Below, piece by piece: positions 4,772 to 26,124 of a DNA stretch of 32,668 bases. The notes under the pieces are model-generated. The model made no database searches, was not told the origin of the DNA, and worked only from the letters and a program-made list of their open reading frames with translations. How positions within the stretch are numbered: position 1 is the first letter of the stretch; each line of letters opens with the position of its first letter. Source of the stretch: Pseudobdellovibrionaceae bacterium (GTDB lineage Bacteria > Bdellovibrionota > Bdellovibrionia > Bdellovibrionales > Bdellovibrionaceae); contig JBIKLL010000024.1 in NCBI GenBank assembly GCA_044359815.1, forward strand, positions 1 through 32,668. Direction: 5' to 3'. A program made the translations under genes and the position numbers.

Positions 4772-4858
4772 ATGTTCCAGTTTTGGAATTATAAGTTAAA
4801 TATGACTTATGTTAAAGAAAGCCATTCACCCGTCGCGAAAAAGCTATTTCAAGCTTAA
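4772..4858 (+). CDS. Candidate 28-aa small protein
   Basis: AAGGAG 5 nt before the ATG; MFQFWNYKLNMTYVKESHSPVAKKLFQA*; its stop overlaps the top6A stop (TTAA). Confidence 0.3.
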   Translation: MFQFWNYKLNMTYVKESHSPVAKKLFQA

Positions 4859-6018
4859 ACGTAAGATTTATTTTTGATTTTCTCTAAAATGATTTTTTCC
4901 ATTTTGATTTTATCATTTGGATCGACAGAAAAGTACGCTTGCTGTTCGCAACGAATTTTTTCCTTCAATAGCCAACGTAAAATATCAGCCAATCCTTTGT
5001 TCTTCTTGTCCAAAAAGAACGGATCATTTTCCAAGGCGTCTTTGGCTTTTTTCAATGACCTGGCTTCGGCCACGTCGTTTTCTTTCACCTTGTAATAAGG
5101 CAGATCATACTTTTTAACGTCTTCTGGCAGCACCCCTAAAAACTTAACATCCGGGGCACTAAAATCAGCATTTCTGATCAGTGAAGCCGCAGATCCGGCT
5201 TTCAAGGTTCTAAAAATATTTTGCAATGTGTACGCATCCAAATCGCCGAAAAAATACATAGGCACTGCCAATTGATCTTCAATCAATTTACACCATCCAC
5301 GTACAGCATTTGATGGAACACCTTGAGCACCTATCAGGATACAATTATTTCGCTTAGTGAATCCCATTGATTGCAGGGTGTTTGCGGTACCTTCAGATTC
5401 GATGACCAGTGCAAAATCAATTTTCTTTTTAGCCTTAAGCTTCAAAGACTGCGGTTTGTTTTTAGGTTGATAAGGCGCCGTTCCCAATGTCGACAGATCA
5501 ACAACGGCTTTATCGCCATCAGCCATGGTTTCAGTAACCACCAGCTGTTTAGAATAAGTTTGCCCACCCCTATCGTTGGCAAAACAATTCAGCTCTTCAC
5601 GATAAACCTTTAGCATGTCCCCGATAAAATCTATGATCGAATCACTTTCATTCTGATCATCAAAATCCAAGGGTCTAAATTTAGGTTCATTTTTTATCAG
5701 ACCTTTACAGATATAATATAATTCCCTTTTTGTATTTACGGCTTCGATTTCCAGGTTTCTGAGCAGGATTTCCAGCATAAAAACCACTCGGGCCAGTTTC
5801 TGCACGCTGGAAACATTGAGCTCGGTACGAACAACCTTATCCCCAGGGGTTAAAAATCCCACCTTTGGATTGTAAAATGAATTATCTAAGGAAGTCTTAA
5901 CGGCTTCCAATACAGGTCGTTTGCTTTTCTCCAGATCAGTCAACATCCTTTCGGCCATAATTTTTGCTTCATCAGGAATGTCGATTTTCAATTCACGAAT
6001 GCTGATTAACTTGGACAT
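4855..6018 (-). CDS. top6A: DNA topoisomerase VI subunit A (Spo11-like)
   Basis: TKRELYY catalytic-Tyr motif, FDDQNESDSII, TOPRIM motifs LVIESEG, GAQGVP and FGDLD, and EQQA; directly downstream of top6B. Confidence 0.95.
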   Translation of the reverse strand: MSKLISIRELKIDIPDEAKIMAERMLTDLEKSKRPVLEAVKTSLDNSFYNPKVGFLTPGDKVVRTELNVSSVQKLARVVFMLEILLRNLEIEAVNTKRELYYICKGLIKNEPKFRPLDFDDQNESDSIIDFIGDMLKVYREELNCFANDRGGQTYSKQLVVTETMADGDKAVVDLSTLGTAPYQPKNKPQSLKLKAKKKIDFALVIESEGTANTLQSMGFTKRNNCILIGAQGVPSNAVRGWCKLIEDQLAVPMYFFGDLDAYTLQNIFRTLKAGSAASLIRNADFSAPDVKFLGVLPEDVKKYDLPYYKVKENDVAEARSLKKAKDALENDPFFLDKKNKGLADILRWLLKEKIRCEQQAYFSVDPNDKIKMEKIILEKIKNKSYV

Positions 6019-6019
6019 C

Positions 6020-7945
6020 TTAACCCTCTAGTTCTTTCTCGTGATCAATTTTTACTTTTTTTTTTGTTGTGTCTGCTTGCTTCTTAGTTGTATCGGCCAT
6101 TTTTTTGGTCGTATCAGCTTGCTTTTTCGTCGTGTCCGCTTGCTTCTTGGTCGTATCAGCCATTTTTTTGGTAGTATCTGCTAACTTCTTGGTAGTCTTA
6201 CCAGAGGAGCTTTCATCATCTGAATCACTAGGCAATAATTCCAACTGCTCTTCATTGAACTCTGACGCTTCCTCAGATTTAGCAGCCCCATCGTCATCAT
6301 CTTCAGGTAAACCTAATTTTTTCCGTTGTTTTTGCTTTTGCACCGACAGCTTCATTTCTGCGTCTTCCAAATCCTTTTTGGCGTCGGCTGAATCTCTGCC
6401 CAGTAATTTTTTAAGACCTTCTTCGGCCTTTTTTGCTCTGGCAGCATTGGATTTAGTGATTCTGACCAAGCACTCTACCAAAATAGGCCCGAACTGTTCG
6501 ATGTGAGCCAGCTTTCGTTCCAAATCTGCTTCTTTGAATTCTTTTTTAATGTGTCTGGAAAGCTTTTGCCCAGCTTGCATCAAGGCTCTGCGAATTTCCT
6601 CAACTAATTCTTCGCTGGCATCGATGGTTTCTTTGGATGCATTTTTAAATTTAATAAAAGGCGACGTAACTGCCACCGCAAAAACATAGGGTCCAATGGG
6701 CAGACTGTTTTTGGGTTGAGCCAATCCATAGTTTTTCCAATTAACAGACTCAATCGCCCAGGTGATAGCACACCCAGATTTATCAAACTGCAATGGCACT
6801 CTATTGGCAAATCTGAGCAACTGCACAGGCTCATCAGCTTCTTGGTTGCGGTTAATAAACCTGGCCAAAGCAACCTCAACTACCACTGGTTTAAAATCAC
6901 AGATTGCTGGTTTTCTGGTTACGACACTGAAAAAATCAATCTGGCCCAATCTTTGAATGGATTTAGATAAAGCTTCCTCACTGACAGTCATCACCGATTT
7001 GGTGGATGGAGCCATCAGCTGGACTTCTTGCATCGCCTGAAAAACTTTTTTAAATTCTTCATCTTTGATTGTTGAAATTGGCTTATTCAGTAAATTTTTA
7101 GGAAGTCCTTTTGCAACAAATTCTTTGATCGATTGATCATTGATTCGGGAAAATCCAGTTTTTAAAAACTTATCCAAGTTAGTTTTACCAAACAATGTGG
7201 CGTGGGTGATCAGCTCGCCCAGTTTAAAAGTATGAGGATGGGGCAATGTGGGCTGCGGAATTTCTGGCACCGCTGTGCTGACCCGCTCAATTTTGACCCA
7301 GTCCTGATCCAATAATTTATAATTAAGCGACAGATGAGGATTCACCAAAACTGTGCCCTCTATATAAGTGATCAAACCGCCGTCACCGTTTAATTGAACA
7401 CGTCCATCAATAACGAACTCAACACGCACACCGCTTTTTTTATCCCAATCAACAGTTTCTTTGTTTTTCAAAACACCGGTATTTGATTTAATATCAACAT
7501 CGACTTGGCCAGTGATCGCTTTTCGCATGCTGGATGTTTTGGATTTTACAAAAGCACCCTTGGCATTTGTTAATTGCGCCCAAGTGGTTGCAGCCGAAAT
7601 ACCAATACCCTGTTGTCCCCGTGAACATTGTCCCTTGCCAAATTTAGAAGACGCCAAATATTCACCAAAAACCTTGGCCAAATCATCGGCCTCAATGCCT
7701 GGGCCGTTGTCCTCGACGACAATTTTAATCAGATCTGTATTTTTGGATGACCCTTGGCCGACTTTTTTAATTTCGATGGAAACTTCGGGCAAGATGCCTT
7801 CTTGCTCGCAGGCGTCTAACGAATTATCCACGGCCTCTTTGAGGGTGGTTAACACCGCCTTGATCGGAGAAGAAAAGCCAACCTGTTGCAAGTTTTTAGA
7901 AAAATACTCTGCCGTACTACTTTTAGTAATCTTTGATGTTGCCAT
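6020..7945 (-). CDS. top6B: DNA topoisomerase VI subunit B (GHKL ATPase) with acidic and Lys-rich repeat tail
   Basis: AEYFSKNLQQVGF, KEAVDNSLDACE, VEDNGPGI, SSKF...SRGQQGIGISAA, LRFANRVPLQF and SKETID match Top6B. Confidence 0.96.
   Translation of the reverse strand: MATSKITKSSTAEYFSKNLQQVGFSSPIKAVLTTLKEAVDNSLDACEQEGILPEVSIEIKKVGQGSSKNTDLIKIVVEDNGPGIEADDLAKVFGEYLASSKFGKGQCSRGQQGIGISAATTWAQLTNAKGAFVKSKTSSMRKAITGQVDVDIKSNTGVLKNKETVDWDKKSGVRVEFVIDGRVQLNGDGGLITYIEGTVLVNPHLSLNYKLLDQDWVKIERVSTAVPEIPQPTLPHPHTFKLGELITHATLFGKTNLDKFLKTGFSRINDQSIKEFVAKGLPKNLLNKPISTIKDEEFKKVFQAMQEVQLMAPSTKSVMTVSEEALSKSIQRLGQIDFFSVVTRKPAICDFKPVVVEVALARFINRNQEADEPVQLLRFANRVPLQFDKSGCAITWAIESVNWKNYGLAQPKNSLPIGPYVFAVAVTSPFIKFKNASKETIDASEELVEEIRRALMQAGQKLSRHIKKEFKEADLERKLAHIEQFGPILVECLVRITKSNAARAKKAEEGLKKLLGRDSADAKKDLEDAEMKLSVQKQKQRKKLGLPEDDDDGAAKSEEASEFNEEQLELLPSDSDDESSSGKTTKKLADTTKKMADTTKKQADTTKKQADTTKKMADTTKKQADTTKKKVKIDHEKELEG
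6059..6200 (-). repeat. In-frame 21-bp/7-aa tandem repeat (x-ADTTKK) x6 in the Top6B C-terminus
   Basis: Translation KTTKKLADTTKKMADTTKKQADTTKKQADTTKKMADTTKKQADTTKKK; the DNA copies differ at synonymous sites. Confidence 0.92.
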
Positions 7946-8028: not shown

Positions 8029-8310
8029 TTATTCAACAGTTAAATGGTGCTTCTTTTTTGAATTACAAGCTTTGCAAGCCGTCACGCAGTTGGATTTATC
8101 AGATTTACCACCTCGTGCAATCGGTATCAGGTGATCCATTGTGAGCTCAGAGGGATGGAAATTCTGTTCACAATAATGGCATTTACCCCGGCCCAATTGG
8201 TTTTTCCACCACTGGGTGGCTTTAAGTTCCTTGGCTTTTGCCCTTTGCTGCTTTTGAAAATCAGCCGGAGCCGGAACAAAGAATTTTAAAGACTCATCTG
8301 CCATTTGCAT
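8029..8310 (-). CDS. Small standalone HNH endonuclease-family protein
   Basis: CHYC...LTMDHLIPIARGG...NCVTACKACNSKK; the start may be the second Met (8304). Confidence 0.9.
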   Translation of the reverse strand: MQMADESLKFFVPAPADFQKQQRAKAKELKATQWWKNQLGRGKCHYCEQNFHPSELTMDHLIPIARGGKSDKSNCVTACKACNSKKKHHLTVE

Positions 8311-8423: not shown

Positions 8424-10175
8424 ATGATTTTAGAACTTTTTATAAGCCTTACCTTACAAGCCAAAGAAACCAAAAGTTTATGCGAAGACATTGCGACCTT
8501 CACCTGCAAGTCCATCAAAATTGACGATGGAACAGGTTTTGTCGATCCTTCAAAGAACATCATTCAAAAGGCTCATGATTTTTATTATGGAATGACTGAA
8601 CAAACCAAACTGCTGTTATCCAAAGAAATTAATTCTGATGAAAATCTGGAAATGCGTCCACAGCTGATTGAACTATTGGATTTAGCCCAGGACCTTCCCT
8701 GCTACAAAAATAAAACATTAAAAGACAAACAAGAATGCGATGAAAAAATCATCCGTAGGCTGGTGCAGTTTGCAAATCCCTTTATCGATGACATTGAAAA
8801 AATATCTTTGATGTATCAGGGATCAAAAAAACTGGATAGCGAAAACAAGACTGCCAATTTTCAAGTCCTGGCAGCAAATCCAAAATTGCAAAAAATTTCT
8901 GAAAAGGTAAAAAACCTTTTGGCTGAGGAAAACCGAAAATCCCTTGTGCTTGCAAACATTCGTGATTCGGTTTTCCCAAAGGTTAAAGAGCTTTTGATTG
9001 AACGGGTTAAAAAAATTGATTTAGAAGCCTACGAAAAAACCATGATGGTGAAACGTTTAAACAACGTAAAATTTGGCGGATTTTCCTGCCAAAAATACAA
9101 CGACTTTTTACAGCAGAATTTTGTTTCGGACTTGTACTGGGACGAAACCTCCAATGAACTGACGGTTTGTCCCGGTTTTGTAAATGGCAGAACCAGTCAG
9201 TTTTCAATTGGTTTTTCTGTAGCCCGAGAAATTTCTAAAACCATTTCGCCCCATCAATGGGCGAAACGCACAGATGCTTCATTAGTCAGTGAAAATAAAA
9301 TTTCACAGATTGAGCAAAAATACCCGGTGAACGAACTGCCAATGTGTTTGCGATTGAACTCCAGCGTTTTTGCCAGGGAATCAATCCCTTATTTTGGCGG
9401 AGATCAATTGTCTGAAGCGACTTCTGATTGGTGGGCGGCTGAAATTATCGCCAAATATGTAGAGAGCCTACCAAGGGTAGCTAATCAAAAAATATTTTAT
9501 GATTATGGTTATTCTAATATTTTAAGGGGCCAAGATTGCCGCGAATCAAAATTTTATTCTCCTTACCCTGATGTGCAGGTCAGAACCAATGCTCTGTTAA
9601 GGGTTCAACCTAAAATCAGAAGTCATTTAAAATGCGCAGCCATCAAGCCGACCGAGGAATACCAATACTGTTCATCGGATTCAGCTGTGGATAAATCCAA
9701 CATGGCTACTACGGATTCATCTGAGTCTGGCGATGTCGCTGCAGCGGCGGGCGCTGGCACTGATGCTGCCGCAGCGGCAGAGGCTTCTGGCAAGCCATCA
9801 GATCTGACTGCAAAATCAAATGATGGAAACAGTTTTGTGAATGAAGGCGGCAGAAGTCCCGCCAGTATAAATAATGCAGCTATTAGCGCTACAGTGGGCG
9901 CAACGGTTGGAACTACGACTGGAGCCTCTGCACTGAGTGGCGCTGCAGCTGAAGCCTCTAAATCTGGTTCAGAAAATTTAGCAGTGCCTCCAGTGGGTCC
10001 CGAACGCGATCCGGCCTCTGTATTGAATGATCCTTTAGATGCTCCAATTGTTAGCAAATCACGTGATTACTCTAACACTCCGACAGTCAAATGGGGCGAA
10101 GCCGATGTGCCGCTAGAGCAAACTGTTGAAAGAAATTTGCCAATGGGACCGCTGGAAGAAGAAGCAGCACCTTAA
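8424..10175 (+). CDS. Secreted Cys-rich protein, possible inactive zinc-metallopeptidase homologue, with Ala/Ser/Gly-rich disordered C-tail
   Basis: 583-aa ORF with a short hydrophobic N-terminus; AREISKTISP and SEATSDWWAAE sit where gluzincin HExxH and ExxxD motifs are expected; low-complexity tail. Confidence 0.6.
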   Translation: MILELFISLTLQAKETKSLCEDIATFTCKSIKIDDGTGFVDPSKNIIQKAHDFYYGMTEQTKLLLSKEINSDENLEMRPQLIELLDLAQDLPCYKNKTLKDKQECDEKIIRRLVQFANPFIDDIEKISLMYQGSKKLDSENKTANFQVLAANPKLQKISEKVKNLLAEENRKSLVLANIRDSVFPKVKELLIERVKKIDLEAYEKTMMVKRLNNVKFGGFSCQKYNDFLQQNFVSDLYWDETSNELTVCPGFVNGRTSQFSIGFSVAREISKTISPHQWAKRTDASLVSENKISQIEQKYPVNELPMCLRLNSSVFARESIPYFGGDQLSEATSDWWAAEIIAKYVESLPRVANQKIFYDYGYSNILRGQDCRESKFYSPYPDVQVRTNALLRVQPKIRSHLKCAAIKPTEEYQYCSSDSAVDKSNMATTDSSESGDVAAAAGAGTDAAAAAEASGKPSDLTAKSNDGNSFVNEGGRSPASINNAAISATVGATVGTTTGASALSGAAAEASKSGSENLAVPPVGPERDPASVLNDPLDAPIVSKSRDYSNTPTVKWGEADVPLEQTVERNLPMGPLEEEAAP

Positions 10176-10272
10176 AGCATAAAGCGGAGCAATCATCATA
10201 TAGAGCATCTGTCATTGAACTTAATATGATATGCGCAAAAATCATTTTTATTAGTAACTTAAAAAACTAAAC

Positions 10273-10362
10273 TCAACCGCGCCAGTTGTTGTGTGCGCGG
10301 CAAAGCAGTCGCAGGTTTTCTGGTTTATGATTTGGTCATTAACCGCGCCATTTGTTATGCGC
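10273..10362 (-). repeat. Orphan copies of the 3' end of the adjacent HNH gene
   Basis: 10329..10273 reads HKPENLRLLCRAHNNWRG*, identical in peptide to 10431..10375; 10362..10339 reads AHNKWRG*. Confidence 0.9.
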
Positions 10363-10374
10363 GACCGTCGCGGT

Positions 10375-11476
10375 CTACCCCCGCCAATTGTTATGCGCTC
10401 TACAAAGAAGTCTTAGGTTTTCTGGTTTATGGCTGCCACCATCGGCAAAACGATGAATGTGATCAATCTGCAATTGGTGTTTTGATTCACATTTTTTGCC
10501 TGTGACTGTGTTTTGGTACTGGCAACTGCCATTATCTCGGCTCCAGATAATTTTTCGCACTTTCGTCGCGATGTATCTGCTGGGTGAGGGATGCTGCTGT
10601 AAACCATTCTCTGTGCTAGTATTGGAGTTGGGTGAGTGATTTAATTCTTTATTCTGAGCACTTTTATTTACTCCGGCGCCGGAGTGAGTGGGCTTATATT
10701 TGATTTGAGGTACAAGATCAAAGAACGCAATCTGATTAACTTTATTGTCAGATTTTTTGTTCACTTTAGCGTGCTCTATTCTTGAGGAGTTTTTCACTCC
10801 GGCGCAAGAAAAGGTTGGATTATTTTTGATTTCAGAAGTGATCTCTGCAGTTTTGCCTTTTTGCTTAAAATCATTGTAAAGCTTTTCGACCAGAAGCTGC
10901 ATCAGGCTTCTGATGTTTTTATCTGGCAACTGATGAGACAAAAGATTTTGCAGTTCGGTGATTTTAGTTTTTAAATCAGAGCTGATCACAAATTTAATCT
11001 CTGTAAATTCCTCAGTCAGAGGTCGCAGGCGTTCAGAGTGTTTGACAGACTCTGGACGTAATTTCACCAGCTCAAGTTCTGCTTCGCGAGAGGATTTGTT
11101 TTCAAGGTTTTGCAGAATTTGTTTTTTCTGTTCGGTTTTTAATTTGTTTCCGGTTACGGATTCTTCTTTTTTGAAAAAGCTTTGAGCCTGAGCAACCACA
11201 GTCAGTTTCAAGCTGCCATTCTGGATTTTGGTTTTTACTTCAGGAATCTGCTGGATTAGTCGGGCTGCAGAAATCCGTCGCATGGCGCTGGCGGGTTCAT
11301 AACCCAGATCTTTGGTTACAAAATCAAACAAACTGCCAAAGCTGTCTGCGTATCACTTCTTGGATCAGTTCAATGACTTCCAGTGTGAGCTGCTGCTCGG
11401 TTTTGGCTCGCGACCTGATGGTTTGCAGCAAGCTTTCGTCGGTAAGAATTTTGTTTTGTTGGGATTTTTCTGTCAT
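10375..11476 (-). pseudogene. Large DUF222-like/HTH + HNH endonuclease gene, frameshifted near codon 48
   Basis: RBS AAAGGA and ATG at 11476 give MTEKSQQNKILTDESLL...EVIRRQL. The frame then changes near 11335-11340 to FGSLFDFVTKDLGYEPASAMRRISAARL...SRYIATKVRKIIWSRDNGSCQY...C...LQIDHIHRFADGG...NLRLLCRAHN. Confidence 0.8.
10668..10708. repeat. 41-bp repeat containing perfect palindrome ACTCCGGCGCCGGAGT (copy inside HNH CDS)
   Basis: Identical to 12144-12184; degenerate copies at 10796-10833 and 11986-12025; palindrome core also at 26104-26119. Confidence 0.9.
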
Positions 11477-11500
11477 TGGGTAGTCCTTTCTGTGGGTTTG

Positions 11501-11570
11501 TTTCTGTTTCTGTTTCTGTTTCTGTTTCTGTTTCTGTTTCTGTTTCTGTTTCTGTTTCTGTTTCTGTTTC
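11501..11570. repeat. Hexanucleotide microsatellite (TTTCTG)x11.7
   Basis: Direct reading; lies just 5' of the RBS of the HNH gene on the minus strand. Confidence 0.97.
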
Positions 11571-11844: not shown

Positions 11845-11968
11845 AATACTTTAATACTTTAATACCTTAATACTTTAATACTTTAATACTTTAATACCTT
11901 AATACTTTAATACTTTAATACTTTAATACTTTAATACTTTAATACTTTAATACCTTAATACTTTAATA
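11845..11968. repeat. Octanucleotide tandem repeat (AATACYTT)x15.5
   Basis: AATACTTT units, with the AATACCTT variant at units 3, 7 and 14. Confidence 0.97.
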
Positions 11969-11985: not shown

Positions 11986-12025
11986 ACTCCGGCGCTGGAG
12001 TAAGTGGGATTATATTGGAATTGAG
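11986..12025. repeat. Degenerate copy of the ACTCCGGCGCCGGAGT repeat
   Basis: ACTCCGGCGCTGGAGTAAGTGGGATTATATTGGAATTGAG aligns without gaps to the 10670 copy. Confidence 0.85.
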
Positions 12026-12143: not shown

Positions 12144-12184
12144 TTACTCCGGCGCCGGAGTGAGTGGGCTTATATTTGATTTGA
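12144..12184. repeat. 41-bp repeat with ACTCCGGCGCCGGAGT palindrome (intergenic copy)
   Basis: TTACTCCGGCGCCGGAGTGAGTGGGCTTATATTTGATTTGA, identical to 10668-10708. Confidence 0.92.
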
Positions 12185-26101: not shown

Positions 26102-26124
26102 TTACTCCGGCGCCGGAGTGGGTG
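26102..26124. repeat. Distal copy of palindrome ACTCCGGCGCCGGAGT
   Basis: TTACTCCGGCGCCGGAGTGGGTG matches the start of the 41-bp repeat at 22 of 23 positions. Confidence 0.85.

Follow-up and report, generated by a model that had tools for sequence, protein, structure and literature searches.

Why would the last codons of an endonuclease gene recur twice beyond its own stop codon, written each time in other codons and encoding the same or nearly the same peptide? This question is raised by a locus in a 32,668-nucleotide stretch of DNA from a Pseudobdellovibrionaceae bacterium (contig JBIKLL010000024.1, positions 1 to 32,668), referred to below as the window. The gene concerned encodes an HNH endonuclease and spans window positions 11476-10375 on the minus strand. 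It belongs to a multi-copy family present in Bdellovibrionota and Oligoflexia. Its product matches the Pfam family HNH (PF01844) with 29.1 bits at residues 278-312, above the cut-off of 21.4, and the D-H..N..H-N motif and the cysteines are visible in the translation. A comparable build is that of the DUF222-type HNH repeat genes, which are multi-copy and chromosomal and encode a C-terminal HNH motif behind a helical N-domain and a variable linker. In the window protein HNH is the only Pfam domain, DUF222 (PF02720) being annotated on just two distant matches.

The gene is not intact. A tblastn search with the intact relative P0002 divides it into two parts, in the following order along the minus strand:

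Positions 11336 to 11476, minus strand: first 47 codons of the HNH gene, with the ATG at 11476, aligned with P0002 residues 1-47 at 96% identity
Positions 10375 to 11340, minus strand: remainder of the HNH gene, aligned with P0002 residues 52-376

The 5' fragment reads MTEKSQ...RRQLWQFV and then a stop, out of frame with the remainder of the gene, whose open frame (11331-10375) starts with a TTG codon. Relative to the intact forms, represented by P0002, P0003 and P0131, a frameshifting deletion of about 17 nt has occurred at 11336-11340, so that RRQLYLQLGFGSLFDF is replaced here by RRQLWQFV and a stop, a lesion that is missing from the initial annotation of this DNA. Judged from its sequence, the window copy is a pseudogene or else codes for an N-terminally truncated product.

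The initial annotation had reported that the C-terminus of this gene recurs downstream; the recurrence is real, and both the coordinates and the sequences given for it are correct. On the minus strand the gene ends with ...GGSHKPENLRLLCRAHNNWRG-TAG (10431-10375), and the following segments can be distinguished from there on:

Positions 10431-10375, minus strand: tail 1, the gene's own last 18 codons and TAG, encoding HKPENLRLLCRAHNNWRG and a stop
Positions 10363 to 10374, minus strand: spacer 1, 12 nt, ACCGCGACGGTC, unique within the window
Positions 10362-10339, minus strand: tail 2, an orphan end of 24 nt, seven codons and TAA, encoding AHNKWRG and a stop
Positions 10330 to 10338, minus strand: spacer 2, 9 nt, TGACCAAAT
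Positions 10329-10273, minus strand: tail 3, an orphan end of 57 nt, 18 codons and TGA, whose peptide HKPENLRLLCRAHNNWRG is that of tail 1
Positions 10313 to 10329 and 10415-10431, minus strand: an exact 17-nt repeat, CATAAACCAGAAAACCT, its two copies 102 nt apart

Tails 2 and 3 are thus stacked 3' of the HNH gene in the same orientation, each retaining conserved core sequence, and each fragment terminates exactly at the conserved C-terminus of the family with its own distinct stop codon. Tail 2 reads GCG CAT AAC AAA TGG CGC GGT TAA, and the first three bases of spacer 2 provide a second in-frame stop. Tails 1 and 3 are separated by 45 nt, the sequences that follow them on the 3' side are unrelated to each other, and the window translation contains no ORF between the orphan ends. 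With spacers of 12 and 9 nt, one reading frame is common to all three ends, a feature that had not been described before and that would arise by chance about once in nine cases. Two small palindromes are also found here. Spacer 1 and the first bases of tail 2 form CGCGAC-G-GTCGCG, and the tail 2/tail 3 junction (10322-10344) carries the imperfect palindrome GGTTAATGA-CCAAA-TCATAAACC, with 9-nt arms and one mismatch; both could be due to chance or be the trace of fold-back template switching.

The divergence between the ends is what makes the arrangement unusual. A recount gives the same 13 differences between tails 1 and 3 as were first listed, all synonymous or stop-to-stop and all located after the 17 identical nucleotides: 11 fall in the 18 sense codons, every one of them synonymous, and two in the stop codon (TAG vs TGA). 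Tail 2 differs by 4 nt from tail 1 and by 4 nt from tail 3, with one non-synonymous change, N to K. Single substitutions in tails 1 and 3 are synonymous with a share of 0.22-0.23, and when 11 random substitutions were placed in the 54 coding nucleotides, taking either tail as the start, the peptide remained unchanged in 0 of 300,000 trials. The degenerate pattern AHNxWRG plus stop has three matches in the window where 0.01 is expected, a number that none of 100 shuffles reached. The window contains two exact copies of the 17-mer CATAAACCAGAAAACCT; when as many as three mismatches are tolerated, 0.24 occurrences are expected and 2 of 100 shuffles reached two. With 11 of the 18 degenerate codons differing between tails 1 and 3, the first five would all be spared with a probability of 0.0025.

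Tandem duplication followed by neutral decay, already discarded in the initial annotation, is ruled out by the 11 silent changes among 11 coding differences, by the simulations and by the flanks, which are not duplicated in register. An alternative genetic code or read-through is excluded as well, since TAG, TAA and TGA each serve as the stop of one end. Since only silent changes separate the tails, the divergence took place in separate functional genes under protein-level selection and not in place. As far as their sequence tells, the orphan tails must be the ends of other, once-functional versions of the HNH gene, either alleles of other strains or paralogues.

Could the stack nevertheless serve a purpose where it stands, as a structured 3' UTR, a terminator array or a read-through extension under selection? 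One element would be compatible with such a role:

Positions 10261 to 10288, minus strand: terminator-like hairpin, whose stem (10288-10274) lies within the last part of tail 3, and then a stretch rich in T (T6 at 10266-10261)

The codons of R-A-H-N-x-W-R-G produce GC hairpins in tail 3 and, more weakly, in tail 2, the T run comes directly after tail 3, and the frame common to the three ends would suit an extension. However, the region 10240-10440 folds no better than its shuffled versions (z = -0.74; 46 of the 200 shuffles do equally well), the pieces are set apart by four stop codons with TAG, TAA and TGA all represented, the gene itself is broken, and nothing alike was seen in the relatives surveyed (80 loci). 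An Rfam search of the window returned a tRNA as its only match. A selected function of the stack is accordingly the least probable of the explanations considered here.

A second explanation is that the stack is artificial, the contig having joined strain variants of the gene end that were never on one molecule. The window does behave like a metagenome-assembled contig, several alleles of the HNH gene coexist in public data, and the same 318-residue frame is recorded in two sources. On the other hand, the two spacers are unique and belong to no allele, so that they must have been present in the reads; graph assemblers collapse or split variants and do not place them in tandem; and the sole exact repeat, of 17 nt, is below usual k-mer sizes. 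We hold an assembly artefact to be quite unlikely.

The surroundings of the gene are those of an ordinary chromosome. The other 23 ORFs of the window are chromosomal housekeeping genes, aconitase and topoisomerase VI among them, and include no recombinase or phage gene. The gene facing the HNH gene in convergent orientation (8424-10175) encodes a 583-residue protein without a Pfam family, and a distant homologue of this protein is equally convergent on an HNH gene of the family at one of the 80 loci surveyed, L059 (5313-7103), from a Bacteriovoracaceae MAG. The housekeeping context and this shared neighbour therefore indicate an old resident chromosomal locus. Because insertion of a whole copy into a resident copy would leave a second fragment of the gene body, such a fragment was sought elsewhere in the window; none was found, the only matches being 13-residue echoes of the linker that belong to a dispersed palindromic repeat.

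The neighbourhood has some features of its own. A further HNH endonuclease, small (93 residues) and unrelated to the large family, is encoded at 8029-8310 on the minus strand (PF14279, 52.6 bits; PF01844, 52.0 bits), with the topoisomerase VI genes on one side and the gene of the 583-residue protein on the other. The topoisomerase VI pair (4855-7945, minus strand) consists of an A subunit, Spo11-like with a Toprim domain, and a B subunit, in whose C-terminus 21/42/63-nt tandem repeats code for ADTTKK(Q/M) units (6058-6193). The repeat echoed from the linker is a 41-nt sequence (10668-10708, translated QIKYKPTHSGAGV), of which a 100% identical copy is found 1.4 kb away in non-coding DNA upstream of the gene (12144-12184) and a third copy, 87.5% identical, at 11986-12025. 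Its core is a perfect 16-nt palindrome, ACTCCGGCGCCGGAGT, which is also present between genes at 26104-26119; in all, the palindrome has four copies in the window, compared to 0.03 expected, and none in the 80 loci. From its distribution the element looks like a REP-like dispersed palindrome, with one copy also located in frame within coding sequence. Upstream of the HNH gene there are two long microsatellites: at 11499-11570 (TGTTTC)12, which is perfect and stops 23 nt short of the start codon, and at 11845-11968 (AATACTTT)15.5, 94% matching. Slippage in these tracts could modulate the expression of the gene, and their presence strengthens the impression that this locus is prone to rearrangement.

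The chromosomal setting bears on the possibility that the stack represents att-type scars, as the initial annotation had envisaged. An element targeting the 3' end of the HNH gene and carrying a substitute end would have inserted once or twice and would then have been deleted, leaving attL and attR nearly adjacent. Integration of this kind is recognized by a gene 3' end present in two copies that differ silently around an identical core, and here a core of 17 identical nucleotides is present at both copies of the gene end. There is also a precedent in a gene of similar build, REP13E12 of Mycobacterium tuberculosis, a DUF222-type HNH repeat known as an integration target. It holds the phiRv1 prophage and attB, according to PMC9317374. 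The element itself would have to be entirely missing, since just 45 nt separate the copies, and two near-complete internal deletions would be required. Moreover, no integrase, recombinase or transposase is encoded by any of the 23 window ORFs, nor by any of 112 ORFs located within 2.5 kb downstream of 65 family loci, and the HNH gene has no homologue in phage and plasmid collections. The att-site proposal thus finds no support at this locus or in the relatives, and we consider it improbable.

What the close relatives display is an exchange of gene halves. The closest relatives, among them P0002-P0005 and P0129-P0134, are 87-91% identical to the window protein and all possess the same last 18 residues. 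P0133 agrees with the window protein throughout its 5' part (155 of 155 positions) and with P0004 throughout its 3' part (146 of 146 positions). P0004, P0134, P0131 and P0002 represent all four combinations of two 5' types with two 3' types. The junction zone of these mosaics lies near ..LVEKLYNDFK, at the boundary between the conserved N-domain and the variable linker. All of them come from metagenome contigs and were compared as proteins, so that some may be assembly chimeras. P0133 starts at the same TTG as the open frame of the window (the source writes the TTG start as L, also for the entry of the window itself) and thus probably shares its frameshift, which suggests that a broken 5' part is common to both while the 3' half differs. 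Among these 87-91% identical relatives, the linker between N-domain and HNH domain also varies by large insertions and deletions, and P0005 resembles a deletion between two internal PT-S-AGV repeats. On the evidence of these sequences, the 3' halves of the multi-copy HNH genes seem to be shuffled between versions in this clade.

The more distant members of the family were surveyed for other instances of stacking. Homology searches yielded 149 homologues at E <= 0.001 and 393 confirmed places in genome contigs, from which 80 loci were kept; the best genome-contig match to the window protein has 41% identity, so that the surveyed loci are all at 41% or less. A motif scan detected no stacked tails in the 80 loci. 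The second family end seen at L014 belongs to another gene copy on the opposite strand, and three isolated weak matches far from gene ends (L033, L043, L071) were taken as chance. Each locus was also searched with its own last seven residues plus stop, and neither stacked nor orphan tails were encountered at any of the 75 loci that could be scored, namely the 80 minus five whose ORFs ran off the locus, of which about eight hold broken copies and are uninformative. The initial annotation had looked to other family members for further stacks; 75 loci, all at 41% protein identity or less, supply none. Its view that incoming copies recombine into the 3' end of a resident copy and displace the old tail is therefore borne out in one respect, by the exchanged 3' halves of the close relatives, and not in another, as the distant loci lack stacked tails.

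No donor of the tails or spacers was recognized among the 80 loci. None of these loci contains spacer 1 along with the stop codon that precedes it, or spacer 2 along with the Gly and stop codons before it, and none of 134 relatives is a live protein ending in AHNKWRG. Ten paralogues from one MAG exhibit no extra nucleotide conservation at their 3' ends, where synonymous codon identity is 0.60-0.63 vs 0.67 overall. As synonymous identity is not raised there, the 3' end is no general hotspot in the family, and the loci surveyed carry no sign of att use or of homing either.

These surveys weigh on a further idea, that of homing into occupied sites. Here the nuclease would cut cognate copies at their conserved 3' end, the break would be repaired from a diverged copy with the old end left behind, and silent recoding would shield the new end from cleavage. 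A free-standing HNH nuclease gene with many copies per genome in Bdellovibrionota is a natural candidate for such behavior, the 3' halves are exchanged among close alleles, and a 17-nt stretch is conserved at the nucleotide level. Yet this copy is frameshifted, other loci have no stacked tails (0 of 75), and the ten paralogues have no nucleotide-level conservation of their 3' end; the cleavage specificity is hypothetical, and silent divergence of this kind is expected between old alleles without any role in immunity. The suggestion that recoding confers immunity to self-cleavage finds no support, as ordinary synonymous divergence between alleles would give the same recoding and the resident gene is itself frameshifted, and homing is very unlikely to have built the stack. 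Only marginally less remote is the broader conjecture that the HNH genes of this clade are self-homing cassettes, in which an intact nuclease would cut the 17-nt stretch in sister copies and repair would bring in a new 3' module. If this were true, recoded ends would escape re-cutting, and stacked tails would record successive homings into an occupied, even dead, site.

Three gene ends, purely silent divergence, a frameshift, mosaic relatives and a locus with no mobile-element context are what an explanation has to accommodate. The one that we favor, with somewhat better than even confidence, is that tails 2 and 3 are 3' ends displaced by homology-facilitated illegitimate recombination with diverged versions of the HNH gene. 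The 3' part of the resident gene, comprising the linker, the HNH motif and the end, would have been overwritten through recombination with a diverged homologue. The left junction would be homologous and located inside the gene. The right junction would be illegitimate, because the donor would share no downstream flank with the resident locus, and would lie 9-12 nt past the stop codon of the donor, inside the last 24-57 nt of the resident gene. By virtue of that position, the old end would escape replacement and be shifted downstream. No fewer than two donors would be needed, in two successive events or in one compound event, and the orphan tails would be untranslated scars. If displacement took place, TGACCAAAT.. 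or GTTTAGTTTTTT.. would be the native downstream sequence of alleles with the tail-2 or tail-3 spelling. What we infer in this scheme is which versions acted as donors, in what order the events took place and how each junction was formed.

Tail 3 is probably the original resident end, still supplying the terminator, because the hairpin and the T run are found there and because its codons fit the host better, although this is weak evidence. They fit better than those of tail 1 to the genes of the window by 4.4 bits and to the gene body by 6.8 bits, a comparison that involves 13 codons and is correspondingly weak. Inspection of the junctions by eye revealed no clear microhomology. Two features are not foreseen by displacement, namely the exact 17-nt repeat at the bounds of the 102-nt period and the reading frame shared by the three ends.

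It is on the repeat that a one-step origin, ranked second after displacement and by our estimate unlikely, does better. A strand copying the resident gene, with tail 3 as its end, would have jumped, once past the 17-mer, to the ends of one or two ectopic HNH genes, copied these together with 9-12 nt of their downstream sequence, and returned to the resident gene 17 nt behind its point of exit, which would yield an 85-nt insertion and a 17-nt duplication. The exact 17-nt repeat would then be one resident sequence copied twice. The setting would be replication or break repair, and the process would be akin to SPDIR (short-patch double illegitimate recombination), in which ectopic single strands are described to integrate at sites of microhomology (10.1101/2023.11.22.568220), or to microhomology-mediated template switching. 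Such a templated patch would agree with the small size of the inserted segment, with the small palindromes across both spacers, with the closer fit of the tail 3 codons than the tail 1 codons to the gene body (6.8 bits, again from a test based on 13 codons), and with the occurrence at the same locus of the deletion of about 17 nt, the 41-nt copies and the two microsatellites. It would nevertheless demand three switches in one event, at junctions devoid of clear microhomology, and no donor is available among the 80 loci.

Displacement by imprecise recombination, the preferred reading, has well-described counterparts. In Rhs loci, orphaned 3' regions accumulate in strings as each newly inserted end shunts the old one downstream (Jackson et al. 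2009, PMC2935791). The resemblance to the window is close in layout: a full-length gene is followed by former 3' ends in the same orientation, each keeping a piece of the conserved region (PMC2935791). The Rhs tips described in that report are kilobase-sized, unrelated toxin domains that come with immunity genes and are met again at other loci and in other strains (PMC2935791). The ends in the window, unlike these, measure 24-57 nt, carry no cargo, encode the same peptide (tail 3) or one that is one residue off (tail 2), and were seen at one locus only (0 of 75 relatives). Tails 2 and 3 accordingly encode neither non-homologous domains nor cognate immunity genes.

A second counterpart is provided by the T6SS effector-immunity modules of Vibrio cholerae, for which sequential displacement via homology-facilitated illegitimate recombination was reported (PMC5361080). 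As in the scheme proposed here, those modules combine a conserved upstream anchor, an illegitimate downstream junction and stacked leftovers, including a shifted 3' end of an effector gene (PMC5361080). The retained immunity genes are selected in that system according to the same source (PMC5361080), whereas the leftovers in the window bring no evident benefit and the gene itself is decaying.

The comparison with e14 of E. coli K-12 goes in a different direction. There, icd extends into the prophage and a C-terminal fragment, the pseudogene icdC, is found at its far end (PMC13626634). As at the HNH gene, a substitute 3' end with mostly silent differences is in place and the native end survives as a pseudogene fragment, as presented in PMC13626634. 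The copies at icd and icdC are, however, separated by a 15 kb prophage and a recombinase (PMC13626634), as opposed to 45 nt and no recombinase in the window. By analogy with the Rhs and T6SS loci, the stack is best read as a protein-neutral miniature of C-terminal displacement.

On this reading, C-terminal displacement, hitherto discussed for toxin loci, at which new ends are favored by selection, can occur without any functional gain, in a gene that is decaying and selfish-looking. The stack would then constitute a small, clean natural record of imprecise homeologous recombination. For annotation it serves as a warning that short in-frame echoes of a gene end located past a stop codon may be scars, and not exons or read-through extensions. 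It also draws attention to uncultivated predatory-type bacteria with a clade of multi-copy HNH genes in which 3' halves seem to pass from one version to another.
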